Of a DNA stretch of 64,000 bases, positions 13,505 to 59,950 are shown piece after piece. Source of the stretch: Alphaproteobacteria bacterium (GTDB taxonomy: Bacteria > Pseudomonadota > Alphaproteobacteria > MPNO01 > UBA830); the NCBI GenBank assembly GCA_964291215.2, contig OZ219790.1, positions 1,728,001 through 1,792,000 of the forward strand, read 5' to 3'. Both the position numbers and the translations under genes were made by a program. Positions within the stretch are counted from its first letter, which is position 1. Each line of letters opens with the position of its first letter. The notes under the pieces are model-generated. The model saw nothing but the letters and a program-made list of their open reading frames with translations. It was not told the DNA's origin and made no database searches.

Positions 13505-13968
13505 TGGTCGGCACAGGAGTTGCGCTCGATTTATCAGCACTTCAGGGCGCTTTCCGGCGCGCGCAGGGGCATCGCCTCGGTGCTGTGCGTGATGGCGCGG
13601 CTTGCGAACCGGCGCGGTGGCGCACTACGACGCAGAAGGAGCTGGAGCAGCGTGGAAGAACAGGGACAAGCCGGTCTCCACCGTGCACCGGGTGCTGCAG
13701 AACACCGACCCGGGATGGATCGAGGATGCGGCGCGCAGCCGCAGGTCGGCAACGACGGCAAGCGCGGCCGCACCGGCGAGGATCATTACGAGACGGTCTC
13801 GCTGGCACGGGGCCGGTATTCGATCCTCAACTGTCACGACGGGGAGATCGCTGCCGTCCACGCCGCGACGGCCGTCTGCTCACCCTCGACGCGCTCCACA
13901 CCACCCGCGAGGCTGATCGTCGAGACCCATCGCGCGGACTGATGGTCAAGGGCAACGCACCTTCGAGA
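13505..13968 (+). mobile_element. Internal fragment of an ISAs1-family transposase (eroded)
   Basis: STVHRVLQNTDP, DGK, EIAAV, LTLDALHT, VKGN motifs; homologous to 15854-16530 (reverse) and 27640-27860. Confidence 0.8.
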
Positions 13969-14427
13969 CAAGGTGATCCCATGCTTGTTGATGTGATGTG
14001 ATCTGAGTCCTGATCGCGGCGCGGGTCGACGCGTTCGAGGCTGCGATTTTGAGATTTGCTGACGTGCTGTTACGGCGCGGGGCGCGATTGGTCGGCGTAT
14101 CCGGGGCGAGCGAGAGGCCTTGGTTGCCGGGCTCGAAAGCTTGCAGTTTCTGTCGGGGAGAGAGGCGCGGTCAGCCTGGTCTTGTGATTGCGTGCAGGAC
14201 CTGCTTGCGCTTGTTGGCATAGTGGCGTCGACGAAGCTGTTGAAGGGTTTGGGCAGCTTGCGTTTGTTGCGGATGATGATTGCGAGGGTGATCGCGTTGT
14301 TTGCGGGCGCGTTCGGAGCATGGAGTCGTCTTCGCGGAAGGTGGCATCGCGGACATGATGGTGGCTCTCGACTACCCAGTGTCCGCGATTCCATGCGAGC
14401 AGCTGTTGCGGCGAGGCGCGCTCAACC

Positions 14428-15853
14428 GAGCATCCATGTTTCTTGGCAAGGTTTTTGCGGGTGTCTGTGGTGATGTTTTCTGTGGTTGTCCACAAGCGGT
14501 GTGGGATTTGCTCTGCGAGCGAGGCGGCATGAAGCTTGTGGTCCCGGCGGCGGGTTGCCGTCCATTGGTCACGTGAACGCGGCTACCTTGCCGTCCCCGG
14601 GCATGGTAACGTGACCGTCTGGGTTCCAGGTGTCCCAAGGCGGTTCGATCTCCTTGATGTCGACCTCGACGATGATCTGCAGACATTCTCCCCAAGTCGT
14701 GTCGTAGAGGGAGACTGTCGAGACAGTCCCGATCGCGCTCTCGGCAGGGGTGAGGGCCGTGTCTCCTTCGCTCACTCACCGGTGCTTCAGGCAACGCTGC
14801 TGTCGCAGCAAGGTGTTCGCCAGAGCTTGCGCATCACGGCGACAATCGCGACCTTGTGGGCCTTGCCGGCAGTCTTGAGGCGCACCAGGTCCGCGTTGAA
14901 GCGTGCCGGTTGCGGCCATGAACAGGAGATCGCGTGGCCTTCGGCGCCCGCCACGGATGTGCCGAGCACCGTGGTCGTTGGCCATCGGCGCCACCCCGAT
15001 CAAGGCTGCCGCCTGCCGACGGTCGAGACTGCCGAGTTCGGGCATCCAGAAGGGCCGCGGCAGTCACCGGACCGGGGATCGAGGTCAGGATGGCGTACCT
15101 CTCGGCTTGCTCGGGATCACCGGCGATCACCGCTTTGATTGCCGCGCCGGCAATGCGATCATTGAGATCGGCCGCCGAGGCCCTTGTGACGGTCTCGCCA
15201 TCCACCTCATCTGCCACCTGCTTGGCGTCGACAAGCGCGGCATCAAGAGATCCTCCAGGCTCTTGAGGAAGGCATCCTGAGGAGCCACAGGCTCAAGATC
15301 GCCCAGCCGATCTTGGCTAGCGCGTCGACGCGGTCGGTCTTCGCCAGATGGCCCATCGCCTCGGCGAAGCCCGCAACGGGTTGACGAGAATAACCTCGAA
15401 GCCCCGGTCATGAAGACACTGGTGAACCTTGCGGTGATAGCGGCCTGTCGCCCACCACCCGGCTCACCCCGAGGCCGCGAAGCCACCTGCCCGTGGCGTC
15501 GTTCGCAAAACAATGCCCGCCGCACAGATGTCCAGACTGGCTGACCCCTGCTACTATCTTGACCATCGTCCCTTGCTCCTCGCCTTACGATGATACGGGT
15601 TCAAACCCAAGCATCCAGCGAGGGACGTCAAGGGAGGTTGGCCGACCACACTCGGTCGCGGCTCTGTCAAGGTCAAAACGGCAACCTCCGCGGAGATCGT
15701 TTGATCCCCGCACCCCGCTCCCCTGTGCGTGTTCGCTCAGGGGAGCGGAATCTCTCTGCAACCATAGACCGGACGCTCTCCCACAGATCCACATTTTCCC
15801 GCCCCCAACTGCTGTGGATGATTGCATCATCAAGGGGACAAAACCTAGTCATA
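14428..15853 (-). mobile_element. IS110-family unit with passenger ORF, copy 1 (eroded)
   Basis: Reverse complement of 43143-44776; MPELGSLDRRQAAALIGVAP...GGR motif. Confidence 0.82.
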
Positions 15854-17009
15854 TGGCGTATTCGGTTGTCCGTTTTCCGGATTTCTTGAATTCGACGCGC
15901 CGGGTGACGCGGAAGATCTGCTAGTTGATCATCTTCGCCAGCGGGGTGAAGATGGTGCGCTGGCGGCCATGCGCGGGCTTTTCGTTGTAGCGCTGGCGGT
16001 CTTCCAGTTGATGCTCTCTCGAAGGTGCGTTGCCCTTGACCATCAGTCCGCGCGATGGGTCTCGATGATCAGCCGCGCGGGTGGTGTGGAGCGCGTCGAG
16101 GGTGAGCAGACGGCCGGCAACCGGCGCCGTCGCGGCGTGGACGGCAGCGATCTCCCCGTCGTAATAGTTGAGGATCGAAACCGGCATACCGGTCCCGTGC
16201 CAGCGAGACCGTCTCGTAATGATCCTCGCCGGTGCGGCCGCGGATGCGCTTGCCGTCGACCGCGTTGCCGACTTCCGGGCGCGGCTGCGCGCCACATCCT
16301 CGATCCATCCCGGGTCGGTGTTCTGCAGCACCCGGTGCACGGTCGATTTGGAAACCGGCTTGTCCCTGTTCTTCCATGCTGCTCCAGCTCCTTCTGCGTC
16401 GTAGTGCGCCGCCGCGCCGGTTCGCAAGCCGCGCCATCACGCACAGCACCGAGGCGATGCGGTGCCCCTGCGCACGCCGGAAAGCGCCGCTGATAAATCG
16501 AGCGCAACTCCTGCGCCGACCAGCGGCGCCCGCAACTCCCACGCCACAGGAAGCGGCGAACGATCCCGTAGCCGACGTCACGACGCAGCGGAAACACGTA
16601 AAGATCCTTCGCCTCCCCGGTCGGTATAGCGCCCGCTGGCGCGCGCATAGCTCCTGCCAACGCACTCCCAGTTCGCTGCCTTGTACATGGTGCCGCTGAA
16701 CTTCGTCGGCGAGACAAACGACTCCGCAACAAGTAACGGATGGCGCAGCCTCCCAGTCGCCGCCGCACCATCCGCGACAACGCAAACGAGGCAAGGCCCG
16801 GAAACGACCACCAAGAACAACAAACCTCGTGTTGTTCCCGGCAACCGCCTGAACTGTTCCTCGCGGCGCCAGCCAATCCAACGGGTGCGCAGCTGAGGGC
16901 GCCCGTCTGCCAGCCCGCAGCGCCAATCCACCGCCCGCGCCAAGTGAACACGTAGCGCAGACCTCGACCGGCAAACTGCTTGAAACCAAGAGTATCTACT
17001 CACCCCTAG

Positions 17010-17206: not shown

Positions 17207-17210
17207 CTAG

Positions 17211-18045
17211 GTTGTGGACTCAAATAATTGGTTTGCGATTCTGCGGAGCAAGAATCGGCTGGCAGCCAGTTGCACGGCGGAGAGGAAGTTCCGTGCGGTC
17301 TTGAAGAACCGCTCGACCAGGTTGCGCATCCTATAGATCTCGCGGTCGAGCGGCCGTGGCGATGTCCGGTTGGATTTCGACGGAACGACCGCGGTTGCTC
17401 CTGCCGTCTCGATCAGATGGCGTCGGTGTCGCAGGCCTTGTCGCCGACCACCGTCTCGCCATGCTCGAGGTCGGCGAGAAGCGCCTCCGCCTGCGCGCAG
17501 TCGGCCGCCTGGCCCGGGGTCAGGAACACGGTCTTCACCCTCTCGTTCTCGTCGATGCCAAGATGGACCTTCGTCGTTCGTCCGCCACGGCTCAGCCCGA
17601 TTTGCGAAGGCTCGTCGTCCCGGGACGCCCCAGCACCGTGCTTGTGAACGCGCACCGACGAGGAGTCGACCATGCGCAGATGAACCGGCGGGCCATCGTC
17701 GCTCCCGTCATCATCGCTCGTAAGCCTTTGAAGCTTCTCCATGATCGACGCCCAGGTGCCGTTCTTGCTCCACCGGTTGAAGCGGTTGAAGCAGGTCGTG
17801 TACGGACCATACCGCTCCGGCAGATCGCGCCACGGCGTACCGGTGCGAAGCACGAAGAATATCCCGTTCATGACCCTCCGGTCATGCACCCGCTCCGGGC
17901 CCTGGTGCTTATCGGGAAGCGCCGAGCGGAGAACCTCCCATTCCGCGTCGCGTGTCGGTCGCCGCTCATCCTTCACTCTCCTTGTGGATCGCTTTTGACA
18001 AGACATGACAGATCGTGCAAAAATGTCAACATTTGGGTACACACC
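17211..18045 (-). mobile_element. IS5 family (IS427-group-like) element, eroded
   Basis: IR gttgtggactcaaat / atttgggtacacacc; ctag flanks; DRRVMNGIFFVLRTGTPWRDLPERYGP, SRGGRTTKVH. Confidence 0.88.
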
Positions 18046-19815
18046 CTAGTTGGGTTCTGATTGGTCGTAGTTCTCGTTGATGATGTCTGCGGCTTTTCCG
18101 TCGAGGGCGATCTGGGTGGCGACGTGATGATTGTAGCCGAGTGCGGCCATGGAGGTGAGGTAGCTTGAGCCCCGGCACCATGCTTTTGCGTGGAGCGGAA
18201 GCATCCGGACACCTTGACCTTTGCCATCCTGATCTTCTGTTCTCCGGCATTGTTGGTGAAGCTGACGTCGGGGTTGTCTATGAAGCGCAGGTTTTCGTGT
18301 TTCACGAGACGTTCGTGCAGGTTGTGCGCGTTTGCTATGCGTCCACGTTTTCCTTTCGTCGGCGGCGGGATGTCGGGCAGTTCCTTGGCGCCCTGATGGT
18401 GCGGTAGCGCTTGCGCCCGGCGTCGTTCAGGGTCTTGGATGCGCTCTTGTTGATCTTGTGGCAGACCTCGCGGAGCAGGCTCTTCATCAGTCGCGCCCAG
18501 CGGTAGCCTCGACGACAAAGGTCAGTTCGCGCAGCAGGTGGCTGCCGCACAGCTGGTGGCTACACTGGCCCATGTACGAGGCCCAGGACGCCCTTGTAAC
18601 ACGGGATGATGCCGATCTCTTGCCTCCCGGCCGCGCTTGCGGTGCGGGAACTTGCACGTCAGGGTCCCACGACATGAAGCCACTTACTGTTGATCCGAAA
18701 TCCGGTCTCGTCGACATGCAGGGCCGGGCGTTGCAGGAGGTGCGCCACGGCGGCCTCCTCCCATGACGCATCGTGAAAGCATAGCCGAGGCCTCGGAGAG
18801 CTTGATGCCGGAGATCGCTTGCACGAACGCGACGGCACGGCGCAGGGACAGCATCTGGGCGACCAGCAGGTTGATGACGAGGGCCTGAATGCCGATGCCG
18901 TACTGCACGGGATGTTGTCGGGGAACCGGCCCTTGGTCCGGGCCTTGCACTTCGGGCATTCCTTGATCTCGGCGCGGCGCTCGACGACCTCGAACACGAT
19001 GTCATAGAGGACGCGGCGCTCCCGATCGACGGGGCCGTTGATGTCGGCGCCGCAGGCGTCGCAGGCCGCGACCGTCTCCTCGACGATGGTCTTGCGCAGG
19101 TTGTCGCCCATCTGCCGGTTCGGCTTCGGGCCCTTGCTCCCGGCACGCTCTTGTCCGTCTGTGACGGCGGCAGACCGGAGTTCCGGCTCGTGCGTGGTCT
19201 TCTCCAGAAGGACGACGATGAGGATGTCGAGCAGGATGACGAGGACGCGGATGACGGCTTTTTCCGCCACCTTGCCGGCAGCGCCGCGATCTTGGCCGCT
19301 TCGAACTCCTCGCGCGCCGCGTTGACCGTCGCCATCACCCGGCCTTGCGCTTCATCAGCGCGCCGCCTCCGAGATGCGTTTCCACATACAGATCATGCGG
19401 GTGCTGGAGCCCCGGAAGTAGCTGGCCCAGCCCGCTCGTCGCCTTCGATCCAAAGTAGCCCACTGGCGGTCCCCGTCGTTCTCGATGACCACCACTAAGC
19501 GAATCGGCATGCAGTGTCAAATCTCCACGAAAACCCGTTCGTTGCTCTACCCCGACATCAAGCCGGAACTAGGGGGTGAGCAGTTACAACCAAGATACGG
19601 TCAACAACACGGTTCCAGCGACATCAGGCCGCGCAAGGCGCACAACCACATCCCGGAGCTCAAAACCCTCCGGAGTCGTCTCAAAAAAATCCGCTGCCCC
19701 CACGACAACGGATACTACGCCGCTTCACAAAAAGCCAGCGAAAATGCGAATCATCCTGAACAAGCAAAACCGACCCTTCCAACAAACCTAGCGTGGGATC
19801 GCCGTGCTTGGAGGT

Positions 19816-19960
19816 CAGGACTTTCTCACGCTGCATTCGATCTTGTCGACTGCTGATGGAGGGAGGTTGTACAACCTGCCGGGTTTTCTAGCTTCGGGGC
19901 CATCCGCGGTCGTCGCCGGCGGCGTTGCCGGTGCGCGGGCGGGTTGTTTTCGGGATGTAG
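19816..19960. mobile_element. One end of the CAGGAC-terminated element also seen at 30028-30148
   Basis: caggactttctcacgctgcattcgatcttgtcgactgctgatggagggag matches the reverse complement of about 30100-30148. Confidence 0.7.
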
Positions 19961-19967
19961 GCGGGTT

Positions 19968-20936
19968 GTGGGCGACAGGCCGCTATCACCGCAAGGTTCA
20001 CCAGTGTCTTCATGACCGGAGCTTCGAGGTTATTCTCGTCAACCCGTTGCGGGCTTCGCCGAGGCGATGGGCCAACCGCGTCGACGCCAAGATCGGCTGG
20101 GCGATCTTGAGCCTGTGGCTCCGCCTTCCTCAAGAGCTTGGAGGATCTCCTGGTGCCGCGCTTGTCGACGCCAAGCAGGTGGCAGATGAGGTGGATGGCG
20201 AGACCGTCACAAGGGCCTCAGCGGCCGATCTCGATGACCACATTGCCGGCGCGGCGATCAAAGCGGTGATCGCCGGTGATCCCGAGCAGAGGTACGCCAT
20301 CCTGACCTCGATCCGGTGACCGCCGCGGCCCTGCTGGATGCCCGAACTCGGCAGCGTCGGCAGCCTTGATCGGGGTGGCGCCGATGGCCAACGACCACGG
20401 TGCTCGGCACATCCGTGGCGGGCGCCGAAGGCCACGTGATCTCCTGTTCATGGCCGCAACCGGCACGCTTCAACGCGGACCTGATGCGCCTCAAGACTGC
20501 CGGCAAGGCCCACAAGGTCGCGATTGTCGCCGTGATGCGCAAGCTCTGGCGAACACCTTGCTGCGACAGCAGCGTTGCCTGAAGCACCGGTGAGTGAGCG
20601 AAGGAGACACGGCCCTCACCCCTGCCGAGAGCGCGATCGGGACTGTATCGACAGTCTCCCTCTACGACACGACTTGGGGAGAATGTCTGCAGATCATCGT
20701 CGAGGCCGACATCGAGGAGATCGAACCGTCTTGGGACACCTGGAACCCGGACGGTCACGTGCCCGGGGACGGCAAGGTAGCCGCGTTCACGTGACCAATG
20801 GACGGCAACCCGCCGCCGGGACCACAAGCTTCATGTCGCCTCGCTCGCAGAGCAAATCCCACACCACTTGTGGACAACCACAGAAAACATCACCACAGAC
20901 ACCCGCAAAAAACCTTGCCAAGAAACATGGATGCTC
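19968..20936 (+). mobile_element. IS110-family unit copy 2, 5'-truncated
   Basis: Homologous to about 43575-44773; same right junction into ISAs1 (gatgctc|ggt) as copy 1. Confidence 0.8.
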
Positions 20937-21402
20937 GGTCGAGCGCGCCTCGCCGCAACAGTTGCTCGCATGGAATCGCGGACACCGGGGGGGGGGGAGC
21001 GAGAGCCATCATCATGTCCGCGACGCCACCTTCCGTGAAGACGACCCCATGCTCCGAACGCGCCCGCAAACAACGCGATCACCCTCGCAATCGCCGTCAT
21101 CATCCACAACAAGCTCCCCAAACTCTTCAACAGCTTCCCACCATGCCGACAAGCGCAGACAGATCCTGCACGCAATCACAAGACCAAGCTGACCGCGCCT
21201 CTCTCCCCGACAGAAACCGCAAGCTTTCGAGCCCGGCAACCAAACCCGGCAGGCCTCTCGCCCGCCCCGGATACGCAGACCAATCGCGCCCCGCGCCGCA
21301 ACAGCGCGTCAGCAAATCTCAAAATCGCAGCCTCGAACGCGTCGACCCGCGCCGCGATCAGGACTCCGATCACATCACATCAACAAGCATGAGATCACCT
21401 TG
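20937..21402 (+). mobile_element. 3' part and right IR of the ISAs1-family element
   Basis: QQLLAWNRGH...HHHVRDATFRED; ends agcatgagatcaccttg. Confidence 0.82.
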
Positions 21403-21806
21403 GCAGGCTCCGAAGAACCCTTGTTCGCCGCCTTCAACGGTAGTATGGCCGGATCTGACTTCTCGTTCATCATCGGTTTGCGGATTAGTTCCTTTCCTCT
21501 GCGGCCCCTCCACGACAGAGGGGCAATTGAAAGACCTCCCAAGTCCCTGCTTCGGCGCGTGCCATGGTTCTCGGACCCCGCGGAGCCCCTGCTCGCCTCA
21601 CCAAAACGGCTCGCAGGGTGTTGCCTTCGGCCAAACGGACGACCTCGGCACTCCGGTTTCATAGCATCTCGTGGCTCAATAGCCCGGCCCACGCCTGCCG
21701 CTCCCCAACGCTTCGCCTGACGCCTCACGACGCATGGTTCACGGAGAAAGTGGTGGTTAGCCTCTCTTCCTGCCGGGACTTGCACCCGACAACATTCCAC
21801 CAGTTA

Positions 21807-24226
21807 GGACTATCGCCAAAATAAATTGATCGTTATGTCCGTGGCGTGAGGGTGTAGTTCCACTCGCCGTGGAACGAGTCTCTGCGGATGGCGAGGCCGT
21901 CCATCTCATCGTTGCTGACCTTGACCCCGAGCGGATAGCTGTTCTCGTTGAGGTCCGAGCGTATGGTGAGGCCGGCGTCGGTGGTGGTCGCGGCGACCAG
22001 CTTGACGATCACCTGGTAGCTGACGAGGGGCCGGCCGCGCCAGTTCCGGGTGATGTGGCAGAACATCCGGTGCTCGATCTTGTTCCACTTTCCGGGCGGG
22101 AAGTGGGCCACCGACACCTTCAACCCGAGTTCGTCGGCGAGGTGCTGCAGTTCCAGCTTCCACAGCCGGTTGCCGCTGCTGTTGGAGCCGTCGGCGGCTT
22201 GGCATCGGGATAGAGCAGTTGGCCCATCTGCCGCCACCAGCGGCCTCGACCGCGAACGCCGCCGTGTCGTGCCCAACGCTGACCCAGCCGGCGTTGGCGG
22301 TGAGATCGTAGACCCCGTAGGGGATCGCCTTGCCGAGCTCTGGATCGGGGAAGTCATACACGTTGACGACTTCAGGGTCGCCCTTGAGGCCCGGCCGCCA
22401 TTGCGGTACTGGATTTCCTTCTTCCTGATGTCACTACGGGCTGGCTCAGTCTCCGGAACGCGCGCACCCGGCGCGTCGGAACTGCGCATCCCGGTCCGGA
22501 TGCTGGCGGCCTTCCAGCGTCTTGCGATTGGCCTGGAGGCTGTACCCCAGATCGTGGAGCAGCCGGTTCACCGTGCGCTCGCTGACGCGGTGGCCCTCGA
22601 CCGCAAGACGGTCCGCCAGCCGTGCGGCACTGTGACACCGCAGCGAACTCTCCGGATCGCCGCGCGTCATCGGTTCAAGCTCGCGCTCCAGCGCCGCCAC
22701 CAAACCCGGATCCACATCCGTCACCCGCTTGCGCCCGCCGCCGGGGCGACGCAAACGTCCTGAAGGAATCTCATTCGAAGACTCCGAATCAAGCTCCTTC
22801 AGCCCGGCGCGAACGGTGCCGCGTGACATCCCCGTCGCCTCAGCCACTCGCGCAATGCCTCCGCGCCCGATGGCACGGGCCTCCGTCGCCGCCCACAGGC
22901 GCCGCGCACGTTCGTTCAGAACCGGACGCAACATCACAAATTTGGATCGCAGCGTATCGACTATCACTTCCATGACATCATTAATAGCAGATCCACATCA
23001 AAAAACAATCCCCCCGTTCCATAGTGAAGTGCAACACATGATGGGCTGTGGCCATGTGTTTTTAGACGCATGATGTTGCGGAGCGGTAGCGGCGAGAGTC
23101 CCTGTACAAGATGGAGGGAGCTTGTTCATGTCCAAAGGCTACCGTCACCTACGAAGAGCGATGCCAGATTGAGGCGTTACAGAAAAGCGGTCTTTCACAA
23201 GGTGCGATTGCTCGGCAGCTGGGCCGATCAACAATTTTCCGGGAGATCAAGCGCAACACCGGGGGACGGGGTTGCCGTCACAAGCAGGCGCAAAGGATGG
23301 CAGAAGCGCGCCGCAGGGCCGCCTCGTCTGTTTCCTGGCGGTTGACGCCTTGGGTTGAAGCTCAGAAAAAGCTGCGGGAGGGCCCCTAGCAGCGGCCGTT
23401 TTCGACTGGAGGGCCGTGGGTCGGCAACGGATCTATGATCGCCGAAGATCGGAGAGCCGGGGGCGTCTTGAAGCTTCGGCGGCGCGGCAAGAAGCCGAAC
23501 TGGAAGGGCGGATGCCATTCCGGCCGGGTGGACATTTCCGAGCGCCCTGCGGAGGCAAAGGAACGGATCGGCGACTGGGAGCCATCATCGGCAAAGCTCA
23601 CAGTGGAGCTGTCGTGTCGCTCGTGCCACGAAATACGCCTTGCCGGGTGGACAGAAAGACACGGTCGGTTCGGTCATGATCCGCCTGCTCGGCTCTGGTG
23701 CGCTATTGGTCCACACAATCACGTCAGACAACGGAGTTCGCAGACCACAGGCGTGTCGCACTTGACGCAGATTTCTTCTTCGCCTTTCCATTCCTGGGAG
23801 CGCGGCTTGAATGAGCACACCAACGGCCTGGTGCGGGAGTACTTCCCGAAGGGCACGGACTTTCGCGCGACATGCAACGAAGATGTTCAGAAGGTGCGGC
23901 TCAACACTCGGAAAGTCCTGGGATCGCCGACGGAGGTAATCTTGAAGTGAAACCGCCCTGACCATCTGCGCCATGTTCCAAAGCCGCAACGTGCAGCAGG
24001 GTCCATGCCGCGCGACGGCGGAATAGTGGCTTGAAGCCGACAAAGGCGTTGCATAAGCTCGATGTTGAAGGAACTGAAGCTGTTCCCAGGCGGAATCGAG
24101 AGGGGCAGAGGGGAAAAATTTGCGCAACACCCGGCCCTCATCTCCGTTCGGGCTACGCCCTCACTGCGATGAGGGCCGGGTGTTGCACTTCAGACTGGAA
24201 GTGGGGATCTATTTTGGCGAGAATCC
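21807..24226 (-). mobile_element. ISAzo13-family element (eroded transposase 21833-22973) with nested IS30
   Basis: IR ggactatcgccaaaata / tattttggcgagaatcc; TTA duplication; LNERARRLWAATEA, HPDRDAQF, KWNKIEHRMF, FHGEWNY. Confidence 0.9.
23011..24206 (+). mobile_element. IS30-family element copy 1 (eroded)
   Basis: IR cccccgttccatagtgaagtgcaacac / gtgttgcacttcagactggaagtgggg; 3-bp TSD atc; IARQLGRSTIFREIKRN, SWERGLNEHTNGLVREYFPKG. Confidence 0.92.
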
Positions 24227-24440: not shown

Positions 24441-24843
24441 GGAACCGAGAAACTCTGGCAGGGATACCAACTCCTCCTCTACTTCGTCGAAAATTACCAA
24501 AAATGCGGAAACTCGATATGCAGAAATCAACGAACTCGATAGTGTCAGATTGAAAGCGCAGGAGCCCGGATCACATGTCGGCAGAAAAACCGGAACCGGA
24601 CCGAAACGACAACAGGGAAGAAACACGATCCTGAAAACAGGACTTTCCCACGCTGTGACTGATGTTTTGGATGACCGCTGAACGGGGCACAAATTTCCGC
24701 ATTCTTGCTAGTATTTTGACATTATTGTATTGATGCATATAGTGACTTCAGTTTCGTCCGGGCATCCTTCCTCGTGAAACGCCGGTCGACGGTGACATCG
24801 GCCGCATTACGCCGTTCCACCCATGCTGCCGTCTCCCGCCGCA

Positions 24844-25962
24844 CAAGGTGATCCCATGCTTGTTGATGTGATGTGATCGGAGTCCTGATCGCGGCGCGGG
24901 GCGCGATTGGTCGGCGTATCCGGGGCGAGCGAGAGGCCTTGGTTGCCGGGCTCGAAAGCTTGCGGTTTCTGTCGGGGAGAGAGGCGCGGTCAGCCTGGTC
25001 TTGTGATTGCGTGCAGGACTTGCTTGCGCTTGTCGGCATAGTGGTGTCGACGAAGCTGTTGAAGGATTTGCGCAGCTTGTTGCGGATGATGACGGCGATT
25101 GCGAGGTTGATCGCGTTGTTTGCGGGCGCGTTCGGAGCATGGAGTCGTCTTCGCGGAAGGTGGCGTCGCGGACATGATGATGGCTCTCAACCACCCGGTG
25201 CCCGCGATTCCATGCGAGCAACTGTTGCGGCGAGGCGCGCTCGACCGAGTGCTGATAAATCGAGCGCAACTCCTGCGCCGACCAGCGGCGCCCGCAACTC
25301 CCACGCCGCAGGAAGCGGCGAACGATCCCGCGTCACGACGCAGCGGAAACACGTAAGGATCCTTCGCCTCCCCGGTCGGCGCCCGCTGGCGCGCGCATAG
25401 CTCCTGCCAACGCACTCCCAGTTCGCCGCCTTGTACATGGTGCCGCTGAACTTCGTCGGCAAGACAAACGACTCCGCAACAAGCAACGGATGGCCGTACG
25501 CAGCCTCCCAGTCGCCACCGAGACGCCGCGCCATCCGCGACAACGCAAACGAGGCCCGGAAACACCCGGCGACCACCAGGAACAACAAACCTCGTGTTGT
25601 TCCCGGCAACCGCCTGAACTGTTCCTCGCGGTGCCAGCCAATCCAACGGGTGCGCAGCTGAGGGCGCCCGTCTGCCAGCCCGCAGCACCAATCCACCGCC
25701 CGCGCCAGGTGAACACGCGGATCTCGACCGGCAAACTGCTTGAAACCAAGATACGGTCAACAACACGGTTCCAGCGACATCAGGCCGCGCAAGGCGCACA
25801 ACCACATCCCGGAGCTCAAAACCCTCCGGAGTCGTCTCAAAAAAATCCGCTGCCCCCACGACAACGGATACTACGCCGCTTCACAAAAAGCCAGCGAAAA
25901 TGCGAATCATCCTGAACAAGCGAAACCGACCCTTCCAACAAACCTAGCGTGGGATCGCCGTG
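24844..25962 (-). mobile_element. ISAs1-DUF4338 element copy 2 with a large internal deletion
   Basis: Both IRs present; 9-bp TSD cccgccgca at 24835-24843 and 25963-25971. Confidence 0.9.
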
Positions 25963-26481
25963 CCCGCCGCATGGTGTCACGGTCGGGAATGCGTCGCCGA
26001 AGGCATTGCCGCGACAGCACGCCAATCTCGATCTCGGCCATGTTGAGCTTGCTTCCGTGCTTCTGCGTGTAGCGAAACTCGAACCGCTTTCGCACCCGCC
26101 TCCTCGGGCTCGAAGGCTTCATACAGCGACTGGGCGTGTTCAGATTGTCCGGCACGATCTTCCTGTCGGGGAAATGGTCGTCGGCAAGCTCCCGGATGAA
26201 GTGCGCCCGGTCCCGCGGCGGTCGGTGACTTTCACCGTGCGCCAGTTCTCGTTGGGCGCAAAGGCCAGGAAGAGGTTGGCCGTGCCGTTTCGTTCATAGT
26301 CGACCACCTCCGGCTGACCGGGGGATGCGGGTTTCCTGCTGCCGGCTGGTCTCGCACACCAGCACCTCGTCCCCGGCAAAGTCCCGCTGATAAATGTCAA
26401 GCATGTCCGCCGCCACGAACTGTGCGCTCCGGTGCGGTGGAATGCACCAGTACTGCTTCAGCCACCGCTTGATCTCTTTTT

Positions 26482-29400
26482 GTATCTACTCACCCCTTGT
26501 TGGGTTCTGATTGGCCATAGTGCTCGTTGATGATGTCTGCGGCTTTTCCGTCGAGGGCGATCTGGGTGGCGACGAGTGGGTTGTAGCCGAGTGCGACCAT
26601 GGAGGTGAGGTAGCTTGAGCTCCGGCACCATGCTTTTGCGTGGAGCGGAAGCATCCGGACACCTTGACCTTTGCCATCCTGATCTTCTGTTCTCCGGCAT
26701 TGTTGGTGAAGCTGACGTTGGGGTCGTCTGTGAAGCGCAGGTTTTCGTGTTTCACGAGACGTTCGTGCAGGTTGTGCGCGTTTGCTATGCGTCCACGGTT
26801 TCCTTTCGGCGGCGGCGGGATATCGGGCAGTTCCCTGGCGCCCTGATGGTGCGGTAGCGCTTGCGCCCGGCGTCGTTCAGGGTTTTGGATGCGCTCTTGT
26901 TGACCTTGTGGCAGACCTCGCGGAGCAGGCTCTTCATCAGTCGCGCGGTAGCCTCGACGACAAAGGTCAGTTCGCGCAGCAGGTGGCTACCGCACAGCTG
27001 GTGGCTACACTGGCCCATGTACGAGGCCCAGCAGTCGTGGACCCACGGCGATCCCACGCTAGGTTTGTTGGAAGGGTCGGTTTCGCTTGTTCAGGATGAT
27101 TCGCATTTTCGCTGGCTTTTTGTGAAGCGGCGTAGTATCCGTTGTCGTGGGGGCAGCGGATTTTTTTGAGACGACTCTGGAGGGTTTTGCGCTCCGGGAT
27201 GTGGTTGTGCGCCTTGCGCGGCCTGATGTCGCTGGAACCGTGTTGTTGACCGTATCTTGGTTTCAAGCAGTTTGCCGGTCGAGGTCTGCGCTACGTGTTC
27301 ACCTGGCGCGGGCGGTGGATTGGTGCTGCGGGCTGGCAGACGGACGCCCTCAGCTGCGCACCCGTTGGATTGGCTGGCGCCGCGAGGAACAGTTCAGGCG
27401 GTTGCCGGGAACAACACGAGGTTTGTTGTTCTTGGTGGTCGTTTCCGGGCCTTGCCTCGTTTGCGTTGTCGCGGATGGTGCGGCGGCGACTGGGAGGCTG
27501 CGTACGGCCATCCGTTACTTGTTCCGGAGTCGTTTGTCTCGCCGACGAAGTTCAACGGCACCATGTACAAGGCAGCGAACTGGGAGTGCGTTGGCAGGAG
27601 CTATGCGCGCGCCAGCGGGCGCTATACCGACCGGCACGGGGAGGATCATTACGAGACAGTCTCGCTGATCGAGCACGGGACCGGTATGCCGGTTTCGATC
27701 CTCAACTATAACGACGAGGGCGGGGAGATCGCTGCCGTCCACGCCGCGACGGCGCCGGTTGCCGGCCGTCTGCTCAACCTCGACACGCTCCACACCACCC
27801 GCGCGGCTGATCATCGAGACCCATCGCGCGGACTGATGGTCAAGGGCAACGCACCTTCGAGAGCATCAACTGGAAGACCGCCAGCGCTACAACGAAAAGC
27901 CCGCGCATGGCCGCCAGCGCACCATCTTCACCCCGCTGGCGAAGATGATCAACTAGCAGATCTTCCGCGTCACCCGGCGCGTCGAATTCAAGAAATCCGG
28001 AAAACGGACAACCGAATACGCCATGACCTCGGCCGAACGCGCCTCGCCGCAACAGCTGCTCGCATGGAATCGCGAACACTGGGTAGTCGAGAGCCACCAT
28101 CATGTCCGCGATGCCACCTTCCGCGAAGACGACTCCATGCTCCGAACGCGCCCGCAAACAACGCGATCACCCTCGCAATCATCATCCGCAACAAACGCAA
28201 GCTGCCCAAACCCTTCAACAGCTTCGTCGGCGCCCGCCACCACCATGGCGACAAGCGCAAGCAGGTCCTGCACGCAATCACAAGACCAGGCTGACCGCGC
28301 CTCTCTCCCCGACAGAAACTGCAAGCTTTCGAGCCCGGCAACCAAGGCCTCTCGCTCGCCCCGGATATGCCGACCAATCGCGCCCCGCGCCGCAACAGCG
28401 CGTCAGCAAATCTCAAAATCGCAGCCTCGAACGCGTCGACCCGCGCCGCGATCAGGACTCCGATCACATCAACAAGCATGGGATCACCTTGGTCGTGGAC
28501 CAGAACGCCCTTGTAACACGGGATGATGCCGATCTCTTGCCCGCGCTTGCGGTGCGGGAACTTGCACGTCAGGGTCCCACGACATGGAGCCACTTACTGT
28601 TGATCCGAAATCGTCGACATCGGGCGTTGCAGGAGGTGCGCCACGGCGGCCTCCTCCCATGACGCATCGTGAAAGCATAGCCGAGGCCTCGGAGAGCTTG
28701 ATGCCGGAGATCGCCTGCACAAACGCGACGGCACGGCGCAGGGACAGCATCTGGGCGACCAGCAGGTTGATGACAAGGGCCTGAATGCCGATGCCGTACT
28801 GCACGGGATGTTGTCGGGGAACCGGCCCCGGGCCTTGCACTTCGGACATTCCTTGATCTCGGCGCGGCGCTCGACGATCTCGAACACGATGTCGTGCGGC
28901 GCTCCCGATCGACGGGGCCGTCGATGTCGGCGCCGCAGGCGTCGCAGGCCGCGACCGTTTCCTCGACGATGGTCTTGCGCAGGTTGTCGCCCATCTGCCG
29001 GTTCGGCTTCGGGCCCTTGCCGTTGCTTCCGGCACGCTCTCGTCCTTGTCCGTCTGTGACGGCGGCAGACCGGAGTTCCGGCTCGTGCGTAGTCTTCTCC
29101 AGAAGGACGACGATGAGGATGTCGAGCAGGATGACGAAGACGCGGATCACGGCCTCTTCCGCCACCTCGCCGGCAGCGCGACGATCTTGGCCGCTTCGAA
29201 CTCCTCGCGCGCCGCGTTGACCGTCGCCATCACCCGGCCTTGCGCTTCATCGGCGCGCCGCCTCCGAGATGCGTTTCCACATACAGATCATGCGGAGGCT
29301 GGAGCCCCGGAAGCAGCTGGCACAGCCCGCTCGTCGCCTTCGATCCAAAGTAGCCCACTGGCGGTCCTCGTCGTTCTCAATGACCACCACTAAGCGAATC

Positions 29401-29482
29401 GGCCTGCAATGTCAAATCTCCACGAAACCCCGTTCGTTACTCTACCCCGACATCAAGCCGGAACCAGGGGGTGAGCAGTTAC
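26482..29482 (-). mobile_element. IS66-family element copy 2 with nested ISAs1
   Basis: Same ends as copy 1; 8-bp TSD ctcttttt at 26474-26481 and 29483-29490. Confidence 0.92.
27044..28491 (+). mobile_element. ISAs1-DUF4338 element copy 3 (eroded)
   Basis: Both IRs; 10-bp TSD gtcgtggacc at 27034-27043 and 28492-28501. Confidence 0.92.
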
Positions 29483-40507: not shown

Positions 40508-40532
40508 AATTCTGTTTGATTTTTCGTAACTA

Positions 40533-47021: not shown

Positions 47022-49105
47022 GGTACTGTAACTTGATGTCTGGAAATTTGTCTGAGGTTTGCGCTTTGAGGCGTTTCACTGGGGGGCTAGCCCTGCCGTG
47101 TCATGACAAATCTGGTTGACAATGGTTTACGTGTTCACGCGTGTCTTTGTCCATCCCGGAACCCGATTTCCCGGCCGATTTGGTGACCCAGTGCGGCGCT
47201 GGTGTGTCTGGCCACATGATCTGGTGACCCGGGCGTGCTGCGGTAGCCGCCGAGATGGGCGACCAGGTGCACCGCATCGGCGAGACGCTCCGGTTCCTTC
47301 AGGGCGTACTTGTGTGCGTAGTCGCGCGAGTTCGCTGTCGGTGAACATCAGCTGCGGCTCGCACCTGGCGGCCGAGCAGGGTCATGACCATGATGCGCCA
47401 TGCGATGACGGCGTTGATCGCCCGCTGCAGGCGGTGCGGAACAGCAGGTGTTCCACCCTGCATCCGGATTTGAGCACGTAATCCTCGATTCGCCAGCGCT
47501 GAAGGTAGAAGCCGACGATGTCGGCCGCCTCCTTCGCCAACCCGCACGGTGGTCAGCAGGCACCACGGGATCCTCACCCTCGGGCGCTCCCTGACCCCGT
47601 GCAGGGACACCGGCTTCGCGCTGGGGGCGGTGCCCGTCACGGGTGACGGACCGTAACTCGCCAGGCGCTTCTGTCGCGCGGGCCTTCTTCCGGCTGGCTT
47701 GCTCCGTCAGTCCCTCGATCTCAATCAGGCCGCCGGCCATGACGGCGAACAGCCTTCCCTCCTTCAGCACCCTGTCATGCTTGGCGCGCAGATCGACGCG
47801 GGGCAAGCGCGTGTCGAACAGCTCGAAGATGTCGGCTTCCCGACGGAGATGACGCGCGTCTTGCCGCCGGGGTGGCAGCGCCTTGAACCCCTCGAGCTGC
47901 GGCGTGTCTCCTGCGACCGGGGCTTCACCGGACCCAGCACCCCGAGTGGCAGGTCAGTCACCGCCAGGGTCGCGTGCAGGCTTGAGGCCCCGGTCTGGTT
48001 CTCACCTGCAGGCCGGGAGAAGTTCAGGTCCGTGCCGCAAGAACCGTCTTCTGGCCACGGATGCTGCCGGTGCGGCGCAAGAATGTTCGCCGGCGTGATC
48101 TCCGAGGGCGACCATCCGGTAAAACGCATTGATCGCGGTGTTGTCGGCGCTGGGAGACGCATTGATCTTCTGACCGGCCGCCAGAAGGCCGGCGCTCCAG
48201 GCGCGCAGAAAGTCGCTTGTCACCCCCCTCCAAACTCGTTCTGCGCCCAGTCGTTCAGACCTTCGCCCGGCGAGGGCGCATGATCGACCTCCCCAGCTTC
48301 CTGCGCGCTCCAGTTCGGCCACGAAGACCGTCTTCACCGTCTCCCAGTCCTGCCGGCCTTCGGTCCTGCACAGGAAGTTGGCCGCGCGCAAGCAGGGTAA
48401 CCTTCATCGGCAAAACTGAGCCATGGTCGAAACGGTCCTCGAAGTCACGCGGCGCAGGATGCGCACATGGCTGGGCGGGCAGAGCACCTGATCAAGAAAC
48501 GGCTCAGACAGACGATCCGCTGCAGGTGGTTCCGGCGCTGCCCGTCGTTCCATCCAGCGGTCCCGCGCCGCGCGGCGGCGGCAAACCCCGCCACCCGTGC
48601 GCCGAGCCCACGAGATATTGGCAGCCGGCGAAGGTCGTCGCGGGTGTTCACGCGCAATCAGCGTGACCGCCCGGTCAATACGATCCCCGACCACGATGAT
48701 CCCGAATGCGCGCGCCGGAACCTCTGCAGCGATACCAACAGGCGAGGCCGGCGGTCGATTGTCGGTGACTTCGGCGCCGGCAGGACGATCTCCGGGCGCC
48801 CTCAGCGCCTTCATGCAGCCGGCAAGCTGCAGACGGCCGCGCGCGTCGACAAAGGCAAACTCCTCGCAGACGACCCAGAGCCGACCGGCTGTCGAACTGC
48901 TCACAGGACAGCAGCGACGCGATCCGCGCAACTGCTGCCTCGTCCCGCAATGTGCGGCTGATCTGTGACATGGGACACTTATGCCACGCCGAAACACCGT
49001 TGTCAGCTAAAATTTCCGTGACATGCGAGGGCTAGCCCCCCCCCCCAGTGAAACGCCTCAAAGCGCAAACCTCAGACAAATTTCCAGACATCAAGTTACA
49101 GTACC
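47022..49105. repeat. About 70-bp inverted repeat made of two copies of the same IS256 end (47022-47092 and 49030-49105)
   Basis: ggtactgtaac...cactggggggctagcc and its reverse complement, identical except for a longer C-run. Confidence 0.9.
47093..49029 (-). mobile_element. IS4-family element with DUF4338-like N-terminal region (eroded)
   Basis: Imperfect IR ctgccgtgtca / tgacatgcgag; duplicated ggctagcc; CEEFAFVDARGRLQLAGCMKAL, DLRAKHDR, LQRAINAVIAWRIMVMTLLGR. Confidence 0.78.
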
Positions 49106-55203: not shown

Positions 55204-55312
55204 GTTCCATATGCTCGGCAATAGTACACAAATGCCGAGACTTTGTATCGCGTCCCCTGACCCCCTGCAACCGGAACTAAACAACTTGACCACGAGTATG
55301 GCGCTCATGCTG

Positions 55313-55630: not shown

Positions 55631-55633
55631 GAG

Positions 55634-55968: not shown

Positions 55969-57210
55969 TCAGCCTTGGTAAGGGCGCAATACGAGATCCC
56001 TGTGGACGATGACCCTGAGCGGCCAGCCGGGACGGACGGTGATGGTCGGCTGGATATCGAGGTTCTTCTCGGTGATGCGCTGGCCGGCCCGATTGACGTT
56101 CTGCTGGGTGGATTCACGGATCGCCCGGACCAGGCCTGCCCCGGACCCCGATCCGGGGTCGCTCTCGTCGCTGCCCAGAGTCAGTTCCGTGCCGACGCCA
56201 AGCAAGGTGGCGAGCGCGATGCCCTTGATGAGCCGCCAGGTGTGGTAGTCGACCTCGTCCTCGAGCCCGGCATGGCCGGCGGTGTCGGTGGCGGGCAGAT
56301 TGTCGATCTCGATGGAGGAGCCGTCGGGCAGAACGATGCGCTGCCAGACAAGCAGCGCACGGGACTGGCCGAAGGCAACGACACTGTCATAGGTGCCAAT
56401 GAGGCGCGTGCCCTGCGGGATGAGCAGCGTGCGGCCGCTCACCGTGTCATAGACGTTCTCGGTGACCTGGGCGGCGACGAGACCCGGCAGGTCGGAATTG
56501 ATCCCGATGATCAGGCTCGCGGCAATCACACTGCCGGCCATCACCTGATAAGGCGAGATCGGCGTTTGCAGCATATGGGGATTGTAGATGCCGCCGGTGT
56601 CACGCTGGCTCACGAAGTCCAGTTTGCGCTGCCGGTTGTTCTGGTCACGCTTGGGGTCGAGCGTCAGGCGGTTGGCGTCGGGTGAGACGGTTGCTGCTGC
56701 CGTTTGCGGAGGCTAACTCGTTAATGCCGGAGCGCTCTGCTGGGGCCGGTTCTCGATACGGAAGAAAACGCCGGCCTCCTTCGCCTGGATAGCCTGCTGG
56801 GCGAGGCGCTGCTCCTCGGCGGACAATTCCGGCGCTCCCGGCGCAATCCCAAGCTGGCGTTGGCGTTCGAGGATCGGTCGGCCGAGATCACCGGGCAGCG
56901 GCGGCCCCAATTCAGGTGTCTGGGGACGGACCTGCGAATAATCACCGGGCAGCGCGGCAAGGCCGTCCGGGGTCGGCTTGCGTTCGGTGTTATAGAGCTC
57001 CTCGGTCTGGTCCTGGATACGCAGGGCCGGGCCTTGCAGCGCCATCATGGTCACGCCGAGGATGGCGCCGGAGCCGAGCACGGCCACGCCGATGACAAGG
57101 CCGCGCCTGAAGCGCACGACGCGACGGGGCGCGGCGCGCAGGTCCAGCTTGCCCGGATCGCGCTTGGACGAACCGGCGGGTTGCGGCGGGGGTGCGGCGG
57201 TATCCGTCAT
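55969..57210 (-). pseudogene. trbI: TrbI/VirB10 conjugal transfer protein, frameshifted near 56715
   Basis: LGPPLPGDLG in one frame stopping at 56713; AGSVIAASL.GINSDLPG...QPTITVRPG in another. Confidence 0.85.
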
Positions 57211-58191
57211 GGCCCCTCTCCCTACCGGTCCGCGCGCGGAACCAGCGCGGTGCGCCGCGGCGTCCCGTCGGTCCGGGAAATCCGAACCACCTGCGGCGGC
57301 GAAGAGACGATCTACGATGTAGTAGTTGCCGCGCACGCGGTAGTTAACGAGCTGGTTGCCGCCGTCGGCGCCCACCACGAAGAGCGGCGGCGCCTCGCCC
57401 TGGTCTATACGGCGGGGGAACTCGATATAGACCTTGTGGCCGTCGTCGAAGGCGCGCAGCGGCTTCCAGGGCGGGTTGTCGCCGGTGATGGCGTAACGGA
57501 AGCGGATGTTCTCCAACGCGACATTCGAGGCGACCGGCAGCGCCGCTTGTGCCGCGTTCTGTCGGCGCAGGGCGACAAGCTGATCGGAAGGATAGGTCCA
57601 GGAAATCGCCGCCATGGCGGTATTCTCGGTGCTTTCGAGCTGCAGGTGATAGGCGCGCCGATCGGTGGTGATGACGAGATTGGTCTTGAGCCCCGGCGCG
57701 AAGGGCTTGACCAGCACGTGGGTGCGCTCGCTGTCGCCCGTGCCGCTCACCGTATCGCCGATGACCCAGCGCACGGTGTCGCCGGCGGACACCGAGGTCA
57801 GCTTTTCGCCGGGCTGCAGGGCGATGTCGCTCACCCGCTCGGGCGCTGCATAGAGCTGGTGGAGCGCCCTTTCCGTATAGGGATAGACCTGGATGGCGTT
57901 GACATAGCCGTACTTCGTCGGCTCCTGCGTCGCCGCCTTATTGGCGTCCTCGACCCGCTCGGTCGGCGGGCGTTTGTCCTCGGTCCCCTCGCCGGGTTCC
58001 GGCTGAAGCTGGCCCGGCAATGGCAGAACCTTCGGCACCTCGACGATCTTCACCGGCCTGGCCGGTTCCTTGTCGATGATGGCCGGCTTGAAATTGTCGG
58101 CGTCGTAGCTGATCGCAGGCGGCAAAGGCTTTGTGGCGCAGGCGGACAAGGCCAGCGCCGACACGGTGATGACAAACATATTCTTCTTCAT
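57210..58191 (-). pseudogene. trbG: TrbG/VirB9 conjugal transfer protein, C-terminus frameshifted into trbI
   Basis: LSAC lipobox, AGDTVRW, TNLVITTDRR.Y, AFDDG.KVYI, YYIVDRLFAAA then loss of the expected continuation. Confidence 0.85.
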
Positions 58192-58193
58192 TG

Positions 58194-59699
58194 GTATCTA
58201 CTCACCCCTTGTTGGGTTCTGATTGGCCATAGTGCTCGTTGATGATGTCTGCGGCTTTTCCGTCGAGGGCGATCTGGGTGGCAACGAGTGGGTTGTAGCC
58301 GAGTGCGGCCATGGAGGTGAGGTAGCTTGAGCCCCGGCACCATGCTTTTGCGTGGAGCGGAAGCATCCGGACACCTTGACCTTTGCCATCCTGATCTTCT
58401 GTTCTCCGGCATTGTTGGTGAAGCTGACGTCGGGGTCGTCTGTGAAGCGCAGGTTTTCGTGTTTCACGAGACGTTCGTGCAGGTTGTGCGCGTCGGACTT
58501 GCGTCCACGTTTTCCTTTCGTCGGGATGTCGGGCAGTTCCCTGGCGCCCTGATGGTGCGGTAGCGCTTGCGCCCGGCGTCGTTCAGGGTCTTGGATGCGC
58601 TCTTGTTGACCTTGTGGCAGGGAGCAGGCTCTTCATAAGTCGCGCGGTAGCCTCGACGACAAAGGTCAGTTCGCGCAGCAGGTGGCTACCGCACAGCTGG
58701 TGGCTACACTGGCCCATGTACGAGGCCCAGGACGCCCTTGTAGCACGGGCCGATCTCTTGCCCGCGCTTGCGGTGCGGGAACTTGCACGTCAGGGTCCCA
58801 CGACATGAAGCCACTTGCTGTTGATCCGGTCTCGTCGACATCGGGCGTTGCAGGAGGTGCGCCACGGCGGCCTCCTCCCATGACACGAGCGCATCGTGAA
58901 AGCATAGCCGAGGCCTCGGAGAGCTTGATGCCGGAGATCGCCTGCACGAGCGCGACGGCGCAGGGACAGCATCTGGGCAACCAGCAGGTTGATGACGAGG
59001 GCCTGGATGCCGATGCCGTACTGCACGGGATGTTGTCGGGAAACCGGCCCCGGGCCTTGCACTTCGGGCATTCCTCGGCGCGGCGCTCGACGACCTCGAA
59101 CACGATGTCGTGCGGCGCTCCCGATCGACGGGGCCGTCAGCGCCGCAGGCGTCGCAGGCCGCGACCGTCTCCTCGACGATGGTCTTGCGCAGGTTGTCGC
59201 CCATCTGCCGGTTCGGCTTCGGGCCCTTGCTCCCGGCACGCTCTTGTCCGTCTGTGACGGCAGCAGACCGGAGTTCCGGCTCGTGCGTGGTCTTCTCCAG
59301 AAGGACGACGATGATGATGTCGAGCAGGATGACGAGGACGCGGATCACGACCTCTTCCGCCACCTTGCCGGCCGCACGCAGCGCCACGATCCGGGTCTTG
59401 GCCGCTTCGAACTCCTCGCGCAGCGACGCCGCGTTGACCGTCGCCATCACCCGGCCTTGCGCTTCATAAGCGCACCGCCTCCGAGATGCGTTTTCACATA
59501 CAGATCATGCGGAGGCTGGAGCCCCGGAAGCAGCTGGCACAGCCCGCTCGTCGCCTTCGATCCAAAGTAGCCCACTGGCGATCCCCGTCGTTCTCGATGA
59601 CCACCACTAAGCGAATCGGCATGCAATGTCAAATCTCCACGAAAACCCGTTCGTTACTCTACCCCGACATCAAGCCGGAACCAGGGGGTGAGCAGTTAC
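58194..59699 (-). mobile_element. IS66-family element copy 4 (no TSD; upstream trb genes missing)
   Basis: Same ends as the other copies; flanks cttcattg and gaggcggc do not match. Confidence 0.92.
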
Positions 59700-59950
59700 G
59701 AGGCGGCAAACAAGAGCCTCGTCACACAGCGCATGAAACGCTCCGGCATGCGCTGGCGCATCGTCAGCGGACAATCACCTTCCGCGCCCTGCTCAAATCC
59801 GGCCGCTTCGAGAGCGCGTGGACGGCCATGATCGGTGCAGACGACGCACCAGCCAACGACAACATCAGCCCAAATCACACCCCGGCACTGGCCGCATGAG
59901 ATGAACAAATGGCACTGAGCCTGCAACCGTGCCATACGAGACTCTCACCC
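59700..59950 (+). mobile_element. 3' remnant of an ISKra4/ISLre2-like transposase
   Basis: EAANKSLVTQRMKRSGMRW...FRALLKSGRF with a frameshift. Confidence 0.65.

Follow-up and report, generated by a model that had tools for sequence, protein, structure and literature searches.

Deletions of five to seven nucleotides in the insertion sequence families of an alphaproteobacterial genome, and their probable spread by short-tract gene conversion

Eroded insertion sequences in the window

The stretch of DNA analyzed here (the window) comprises 64,000 nucleotides (nt) of G000, a 6.15-Mb genome in two contigs (G000:C1:1728001-1792000) whose permuted tmRNA and 16S sequences we take to be alphaproteobacterial, and it carries copies, some of them nested, of eight insertion sequence (IS) families (IS66, IS630, IS30, ISAs1, IS110, IS4, IS5, and ISAzo13) with transposase genes that are interrupted by short deletions. 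Comparison of the 27,164 base pairs (bp) of repeats in the window with their family references gave 243 deletions of 5–7 nt and 43 of 1–4 nt, along with 825 substitutions (deletions of 1 to 15 nt numbering 29, 4, 8, 2, 52, 109, 82, 18, 9, 3, 7, 19, 7, 7, and 0, respectively).

An initial annotation of the window had named these eight families and described their coding regions as broken by small deletions while ends, target duplications, and host genes remained intact. The family assignments hold, as Pfam domains were found on window open reading frames for IS5, ISAzo13, IS30, and, weakly, IS66; IS66, ISAs1, IS110, IS4, and IS30 were also identified through intact relatives, and IS630 through an annotated plasmid match. 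Both IS30 differences offered as examples were found in place, copy 1 retaining an ancestral 5 nt at 23171 and lacking 11 nt at 23522, and copy 2 lacking the 5 nt (34654) and retaining the 11 nt (35006). Genome-wide, the 5-nt loss is carried by 39 and the 11-nt loss by 24 of 44 full IS30 copies, all of which have intact ends and share identical deletions in differing combinations. Element ends are indeed spared, with 34 distinct deletions lying within 150 bp of an end compared to 73.5 expected from composition, and target duplications persist, a direct repeat of at least 8 bp being kept in 83 of 114 IS66 copies. In the nested IS630 region (24707..30029), deletions of 5–7 nt are present in inner and outer elements alike. 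Three features go beyond that first description: the fixed size of the deletions, the sharing of identical alleles between copies, and a breakpoint motif.

Table 1 Repeat elements and a single-copy control in the window
Coordinates	Strand	Feature	Deletions and remarks
13504..16991		ISAs1-family element; nested in it, an ISAs1 end fragment (13969-14430) and an IS110 element (14426-15854)	39 deletions of 5–7 nt over the pieces
17214..18048	-	IS5-family element	2 deletions of 5–7 nt; Pfam and reference mapping
18038..19587	-	IS66-family element, ~190 copy equivalents genome-wide	14 deletions of 5–7 nt
19588..21403		ISAs1 pieces enclosing part of an IS110 (19962-20938)	15 deletions of 5–7 nt
21403..21805		Presumed group II intron-like end piece	49 full copies, ~40 shared deletions per copy
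21806..23010	-	ISAzo13-family element, frameshifted	4 deletions of 5–7 nt
23011..24206	+	IS30 copy 1	14 deletions (11 of 5–7 nt), 12 substitutions
24707..30029		IS630, interrupted by ISAs1 pieces and an IS66 copy (26482-29483) itself holding ISAs1 pieces	
34489..35711	+	IS30 copy 2	10 deletions (9 of 5–7 nt)
35915..37902		Element related to IS66, with homology to a DruA-like domain	10 deletions of 5–7 nt
38991..40507	-	IS66 copy	24 deletions of 5–7 nt
40530..41739	-	IS630 copy	9 deletions of 5–7 nt; annotated plasmid match
43135..44773		IS110 copy	14 deletions of 5–7 nt
47084..48990		IS4-family (Tn5-type) copy	19 deletions (14 of 5–7 nt), only 4 substitutions
55975..58170	-	Relics of trbG and trbI (single copy, control)	Frame unshifted; a single stop, in trbI
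58194..59699	-	IS66 copy	20 deletions of 5–7 nt

The end piece at 21403..21805 is presumably group II intron-like, a label that we base on reverse transcriptase matches and an end motif. In the multicopy element at 35915-37902, the relative in the sister genome G001 has a Druantia DruA-like domain overlapping the IS66 transposase frame. Amid the IS clusters lie an intact GPP34-domain gene (33592-34533) and an intact squalene/phytoene synthase gene (37981-38871). At 51605-55893, a DUF5131 and GMT-wHTH gene pair adjoins an AbiEi/AbiEii toxin-antitoxin pair, and these genes, beside a serine recombinase gene (49311-51227) and the trb relics, form an integrated element. The trbG frame (56713-58191) continues into the first half of trbI and ends at the premature stop.

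A 5–7-nt size class across repeat families

Repeats with at least three copies make up about 28% of G000 DNA. A repeat library was built, 41 families were aligned, and 28 were kept, with indels called against the most complete reference of each family and families of more than 60 full copies sampled to 60; three duplicates, a clustered regularly interspaced short palindromic repeat (CRISPR) array, and two young families of low divergence were dropped, as were seven repeats that had diverged or are still coding. In the 28 families, which include IS and group II intron copies, distinct deletions of 1 to 14 nt numbered 210, 74, 35, 28, 197, 444, 272, 69, 42, 21, 38, 68, 38, and 36, or 913 events of 5–7 nt compared to 347 of 1–4 nt. 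The echo at 11–14 nt consists largely of double events, as 87 of 180 contain a 5–7-nt event (null, 19%). Power-law sizes and a single ratio in all neutral DNA, which would mark ordinary pseudogene decay, were not found in G000.

Almost every transposon copy in G000 bears many of these shared deletions. Among 114 IS66, 44 IS30, 54 and 35 IS630, and 17 ISAzo13 copies, none is both full-length and free of stops; one ISAs1 family has 1 intact copy in 19. Deletions of 5–7 nt are absent from a young IS66 family with 11 copies; an IS4 family carries about 14 deletions per copy, yet only one or two private single-nucleotide polymorphisms (SNPs). For two of the four elements searched, no intact close relative was found on plasmids. 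A 4.3-kb repeat near C1:1120755 (six copies), which keeps a frame of ~1400 amino acids, has nine distinct in-frame 6-nt deletions among 22 events. The CRISPR array at G000:C1:574173-581180 has 97 repeats, 96 of them identical and free of deletions; a second array lies near C2:2068553.

Because G000 is an assembled record, the short alleles could in principle be assembly or polishing errors. Three sequencing runs of one study (X1, X2, and X3) cover the region and were compared as contigs, and X1 may be the source sample of the assembly. The short alleles are present in X1 contigs at ~35x single-copy depth and also in X3, a different strain, and X1 matches unique DNA exactly over 4,185 and about 18,000 bp. 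Moreover, the related genome G002 shows the same size peak with its own motif, and the repeats of two other congeners, G003 and G004, do not. As far as contigs allow, an artefact is excluded and its probability is negligible. Repeats rich in frameshifts should not be taken for errors by default when they occur in long-read assemblies. Comparison of the strains over 19.9 kb of single-copy DNA gave one 12-nt indel, with no 5–7-nt indel listed. X2 differs by a dense SNP block at L178:7651-9797, absent in X1 and X3, which suggests allelic recombination between strains.

Copy number and single-copy controls

The load of 5–7-nt indels increases with copy number. Per 100 substitutions, 2.5, 4.5, 6.1, 6.5, 13, 19.5, and 21 such indels were counted in classes running from 2 to more than 100 copies, and the ratio of 5–7-nt to 1–4-nt events climbs from 1.0 to 4.6; the gradient holds within divergence bands, and over the 28 families load correlates with copy number (rho = 0.47, p = 0.011). 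Nine large families carry 143 deletions of 5–7 nt per 12.5 kb per copy (~11/kb), or 58 per 100 substitutions. The trb relics of the window are only lightly damaged, as first described, and 23 single-copy pseudogenes together have 6 such deletions in 28.3 kb (0.2/kb), so that the repeat load is about 50-fold that of single-copy pseudogenes. An equal deletion-to-substitution ratio in the two, which would have pointed to ordinary decay, is not what we see.

Single-copy DNA is nevertheless hit. Four congeners were compared with G000 (identity over the mutS locus: G001, 93.6%; G004, 76%; G002, 72%; G003, 67%). Over 391 kb aligned to G001, in-frame genes (279 kb) show 19 losses of 6 nt in G000 and 1 in G001, and 55 kb of non-coding DNA shows 35 versus 12 losses of 5–7 nt, with 1-nt losses nearly even at 84 versus 78. 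Protein alignments give two-residue to one-residue gaps of 33:18 in G000, 9:19 in G001, 31:9 in G002, 28:22 in G004, and 3:12 in G003. Host genes are not spared by 5–7-nt deletions, if weakly affected, and the view that housekeeping genes are undamaged stands for frameshifts and not for in-frame 6-nt losses. The excess in single-copy DNA and in protein gaps indicates a source of deletions that is genome-wide but patchy among lineages.

These controls bear on the idea of a past genome-wide burst of 5–7-nt deletions followed by neutral conversion, in which repeats are enriched only as neutral and old DNA. Two-codon gaps fixed in family references suggest action before or during expansion, and both the young IS66 family lacking such deletions and the strain comparison above agree with a burst that has ended. 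However, the single-copy pseudogenes largely refute it with their low load, the IS4 family combines few private SNPs with many deletions, and the copy-number gradient remains within divergence bands; we therefore consider this history improbable.

Distribution among related genomes

For congener repeats, 400-kb samples were used, partly chosen around IS hits. Between repeats, 5–7-nt indels per 100 substitutions amounted to 7.0 in G002, 0.5 in G004, and 0 in G003; in G001, where repeats gave one pair in 791 kb, the signature was judged absent from single-copy DNA and protein gaps. The signature is thus present in G000 and G002 and absent in the sister G001 and in G003. G004 has an excess of two-residue gaps but almost no 5–7-nt IS indels, and its source may have been active earlier and now be off. 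Three IS30 relatives in a Paracoccaceae genome showed no 5–7-nt gap. Since close relatives differ in the signature, comparative genomics should be able to identify the gene responsible. In G002, tandem copies of a 1.9-kb unit (L157, G002:C1:1900001-1920000) differ by many 6-nt deletions, and non-IS repeats are hit as well.

Ancestral state of the alleles and exchange between copies

To polarize the events, family references were realigned, each in one to three pieces, to the intact transposases found in relatives, and alleles were given local scores. A better match to the intact protein came from the long allele in 93 of 95 events with a frequency above 50%, in 54 of 55 rare events, and in 47 of 52 segments that survive in a single copy, compared to 6 of 45 in a random-insert control, indicating that the events are deletions. 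The long allele is ancestral, and each family retains most of its transposase, scattered over its copies. Polarizing SNPs through proteins of 45–65% identity was too noisy, and nonsense SNPs were used instead.

Linkage between common markers, SNPs and deletions alike, falls to ~1/N by 30–60 bp in IS66, IS30, and IS630 and is retained further in two families that contain subfamilies. Sharing of rare-SNP carriers drops from 0.255 within 10 bp to 0.105 within 25 bp and 0.04 within 50 bp, and in most large families all four allele combinations occur at ~85–99% of marker pairs. Sequence transfer between paralogous copies is evident from these four-gamete violations and from the loss of linkage in both marker types, and the linkage decay, together with the rare-SNP sharing, indicates that copies exchange short tracts. 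Mobilization of dead master copies in trans, with deletions inherited by descent, had been raised in the initial annotation and is compatible with intact ends and target duplications, with four ISAzo13 copies of a common young haplotype, and with the one intact ISAs1 copy; yet descent from dead masters cannot yield such a mosaic and is not needed, and no stop-free master is seen in the IS66, IS30, IS630, and ISAzo13 families. We regard it as exceedingly improbable.

The frequencies of the deletions point to a net bias toward the shorter allele. In the polarized spectrum, 432 of 1075 events of 5–7 nt lie above 50% frequency compared to 197 under neutrality (best-fitting S of at least 20, log-likelihood gain of 234); without the class of segments surviving in a single copy, the figures are 270 of 913 compared to 166, with S of 3–4. 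The 1–4, 8–10, and 15+ nt classes are fitted by neutral or negative S, nonsense SNPs have a mean frequency of 0.05 with none of 46 above 50%, and deletion frequency is independent of microhomology. Within 20 bp, diversity among deletion carriers is 0.68–0.77 of that among non-carriers (SNP control, 0.99 and 0.84), and at 112 of 132 common sites one allele makes up at least 90% of the deleted copies, though shifted alleles exist. This local loss of diversity and the dominance of one allele argue for a single origin of each deletion followed by spread. Near element ends deletions are depleted beyond composition and SNPs are not, with the caveat that alignment of the ends may affect this comparison; such depletion would follow from exchange that requires homology on either side. 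A toy simulation (one seed, 50 copies, 10% bias) produced a similar load and spectrum.

A repeat-triggered process was suggested at the outset, and the dependence on copy number bears this part out. In its strict form, pairing or recombination between copies would itself make 5–7-nt deletions at motifs, and conversion, if any, would be unbiased. This form gains from the copy-number dependence, from a breakpoint motif that could give recurrent identical events, from 209 of 429 events overlapping another compared to 177 expected, and from the singleton excess described below. The single-origin alleles that dominate common sites despite the existence of shifted ones, the locally reduced diversity of carriers, and the hits on single-copy DNA all speak against it, as do the 162 segments surviving in one aligned copy, since neutral conversion does not give the near-fixed excess. 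The spread of single-origin deletions is favored over mutation of each copy, and we hold the strict form to be rather unlikely.

Breakpoints and candidate sources of the deletions

The deletions had been described as often lying between short direct repeats, which applies to a minority only. Microhomology is lacking at 32–35% of the 5–7-nt events in G000 (null, 48–54%) and at 97 of 175 in G002, making it a minor factor with a modest excess in G000 and none in G002; microhomology at most junctions, as end joining would leave, was not found. Instead, deleted segments tend to start with particular trinucleotides, ATC in 66 of 174 in G002 (38%, where a fraction of 0.04 is expected) and in 102 of 878 in G000 (0.06 expected), and purine-pyrimidine-C (RYC) in 487 of 878 in G000 (0.39 expected), and the breakpoint profile of each species scores the events of the other (p = 7e-11 and 5e-9). 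The deletions are not oriented relative to the coding strand (118 of 213), and in G000 they show no link to palindromy, GANTC, or TCGA. A SNP excess inside deleted segments is not clear, leaving a mismatch-centered cut unsupported, and the SNP excess beside private deletions is equal for 1–4 and 5–7 nt.

Replication slippage of the ordinary kind, acting at short repeats and with products below 5 nt removed by mismatch repair, would agree with intact mutS and mutL, with the trough at 2–4 nt, and with the modest microhomology excess in G000. Against this, about two thirds of the events would need no microhomology and G002 shows no excess, the sizes have their mode at 6 and drop at 8, G001 and G003 have mutS and no peak, and slippage does not explain the breakpoint motif, all of which make it very improbable.

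The repair genes mutS, mutL, recA, uvrA, uvrD, polA, dnaQ, and ruvABC have open frames in G000, as do recG, recJ, recQ, recF, xseA, rnhA, and rnhB. Among 30 Escherichia coli repair and replication proteins, 27 matched G000 open frames; sbcD, recX, and sbcB did not. Neither Ku, an ATP-dependent ligase, nor a Piwi/Argonaute gene was found in any of the five genomes, ComEC had no match in any of them, and NucS, RecT, and Prim-Pol were not found in G000. None of the 96 spacers of one CRISPR array matches the rest of G000. Several candidate sources were set aside: SRAP, ExoVII, RecO, and DnaQ-type exonucleases are in all five genomes and so do not track the signature; reverse transcriptases are also in G001 and do not track it either; AEP-TOTE is a fragment only; and dprA lacks a match over the cut-off in G000 only, being present in all four congeners.

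Phosphorothioation genes were found in both genomes with the signature, and ssp-like genes also in G001, which lacks it. An sspABCD-like locus (G000:C1:876313-882858) encodes a cysteine desulfurase, a DUF4007 (SspB-like) protein, a 1158-amino-acid ATPase, and a PAPS-reductase-like protein, followed by a 454-amino-acid frame; G000 has Ssp, G002 has ssp-like genes and two Dnd systems, G004 has Dnd, and G003 has none. As far as the published accounts drawn on here describe it, SspB nicks DNA and known phosphorothioate motifs include CCA and GATC (PMC8092258, PMC8569181). CCA overlap is mildly enriched at G000 deletions (271 of 878, 0.24 expected), and the modified motifs of the strains themselves may differ; ATC in G002 shows no preference for the preceding G of GATC.

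Proposed mechanism

We consider it probable that a weak, genome-wide source of 5–7-nt deletions and short-tract gene conversion favoring the shorter allele together fill the repeat families. In a first step, the motif-biased source would make deletions of 5–7 nt; in a second, conversion between copies, directional as judged from the spectra, would drive the short allele through each family, with a drive that would grow with copy number. Loops of at least 5 nt escape MutS, and this escape could set the lower size limit and let heteroduplexes avoid rejection. Our leading guess for the source is a nick or short primer placed by the motif, with the 5–7-nt gap closed without fill-in, as the purine-pyrimidine start and the length of the deleted segments resemble a short primer. 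Ssp/Dnd phosphorothioation is one candidate for the origin of the nick. A more specific version, which we put forward only tentatively, is a horizontally switched enzyme that excises a 5–7-nt oligonucleotide at ATC/RYC, seals the gap unseen by MutS, and also resolves 5–7-nt loops to the deletion. If it were true, the outcome would be a deletion drive, a kill switch acting across the genome on any multicopy DNA whatever its sequence, and so the bacterial equivalent of fungal repeat-induced point mutation (RIP) with a different chemistry.

Several observations weigh against a weak source amplified by biased conversion. Singleton 5–7-nt deletions per SNP number 87/1707 in repeats and 35/~2860 in single-copy non-coding DNA (half of 5729 SNPs), and with this roughly fourfold excess repeats may generate deletions faster, or the onset may be recent. 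Deletions beside nested-insertion junctions are not short in number (38 compared to 37.6 expected at 78 junctions), small families of 6–11 aligned copies also fit strong drive, and correlations of private SNPs with load range from -0.62 to +0.26. Frequency spectra, and not observed events, give the direction of conversion; the spectrum model assumes equilibrium and independent sites, and a past burst in repeats followed by unbiased conversion would also flatten the spectrum. Neither motif reaches significance among 67 single-copy events (RYC, 34 of 67 versus 0.43; ATC, 7 of 67 versus 0.09), the profile scores on single-copy events give p = 0.15 and 0.96, the responsible enzyme was not found among the gene candidates searched, and G001 has sspB/sspD-like genes without the signature.

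Comparison with known systems

What brings IS outbreaks to an end in bacteria is not settled, and gradual loss through large deletions and selection is the customary explanation. Under the proposed combination of source and conversion, whole IS families would lose function where they stand, at a pace set by their own copy number and without host selection, and the fixed-size, motif-anchored signature would point to an unrecognized DNA-processing reaction.

In fungal RIP, C-to-T changes are made independently in each copy. As in RIP, damage in G000 scales with repetition and disables mobile DNA; independent mutation of each copy, sparing of single-copy DNA, and the C-to-T lesion are not seen, as deletions of single origin spread between copies and nonsense SNPs stay rare. 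Bacterial pseudogene decay shares the deletion bias and some microhomology, but in the relevant passages of its description sizes follow a power law with an excess of multiples of three (PMC6054270). The Sitophilus oryzae primary endosymbiont shares a symbiont-like IS expansion, with 189 of 311 ISSoEn1 copies given as intact in that account (PMC3914690), compared to none in the large families here. Short-patch double illegitimate recombination in Acinetobacter baylyi likewise makes small deletions at short patches and is suppressed by DprA, for which G000 has no match; as outlined in that report, it is rare, templated, and spans 3 to ~100 bp (10.1101/2023.11.22.568220), whereas recA is intact here and G002 keeps dprA.

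Conversion that favors loss has precedents. Pneumococcal transformation, as summarized by its authors, favors deletion over insertion, with mismatch repair hindering SNPs and not loops (PMC5850275), and mismatch repair is described as limiting oligonucleotide recombination (PMC4604488). The pneumococcal process, in the same summary, is allelic, works at kilobase scale, and needs DNA uptake (PMC5850275), whereas exchange here is ectopic with tracts below ~50 bp, and in G000 deletions longer than 10 nt show no bias unless they are composites. Dead IS copies in Wolbachia reportedly undergo gene conversion (Cordaux, in 2009). Wolbachia IS resemble those of G000 in that non-functional copies persist and exchange sequence, while the corresponding passages of one study describe homogenization and general decay, with no size peak or directional drive (PMC3205602). 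In the open literature, with subscription journals and supplements aside, we found no report of a 5–7-nt peak or of deletion-biased conversion in bacterial IS. The closest likeness is to deletion-biased nonallelic gene conversion as outlined for Drosophila and primates, in which paralogues swap length variants, lose sequence on balance, and become shorter in concert, the bias being stronger for long indels in primates (PMC3280953). No extension of the bias to longer indels was found in G000, where the 8–10 and 15+ nt classes are neutral. The spread proposed here would be a bacterial case of deletion-biased conversion, differing from that of flies and primates in its restriction to 5–7 nt, in its size-fixed and motif-biased source, and in the inactivation of many IS families.

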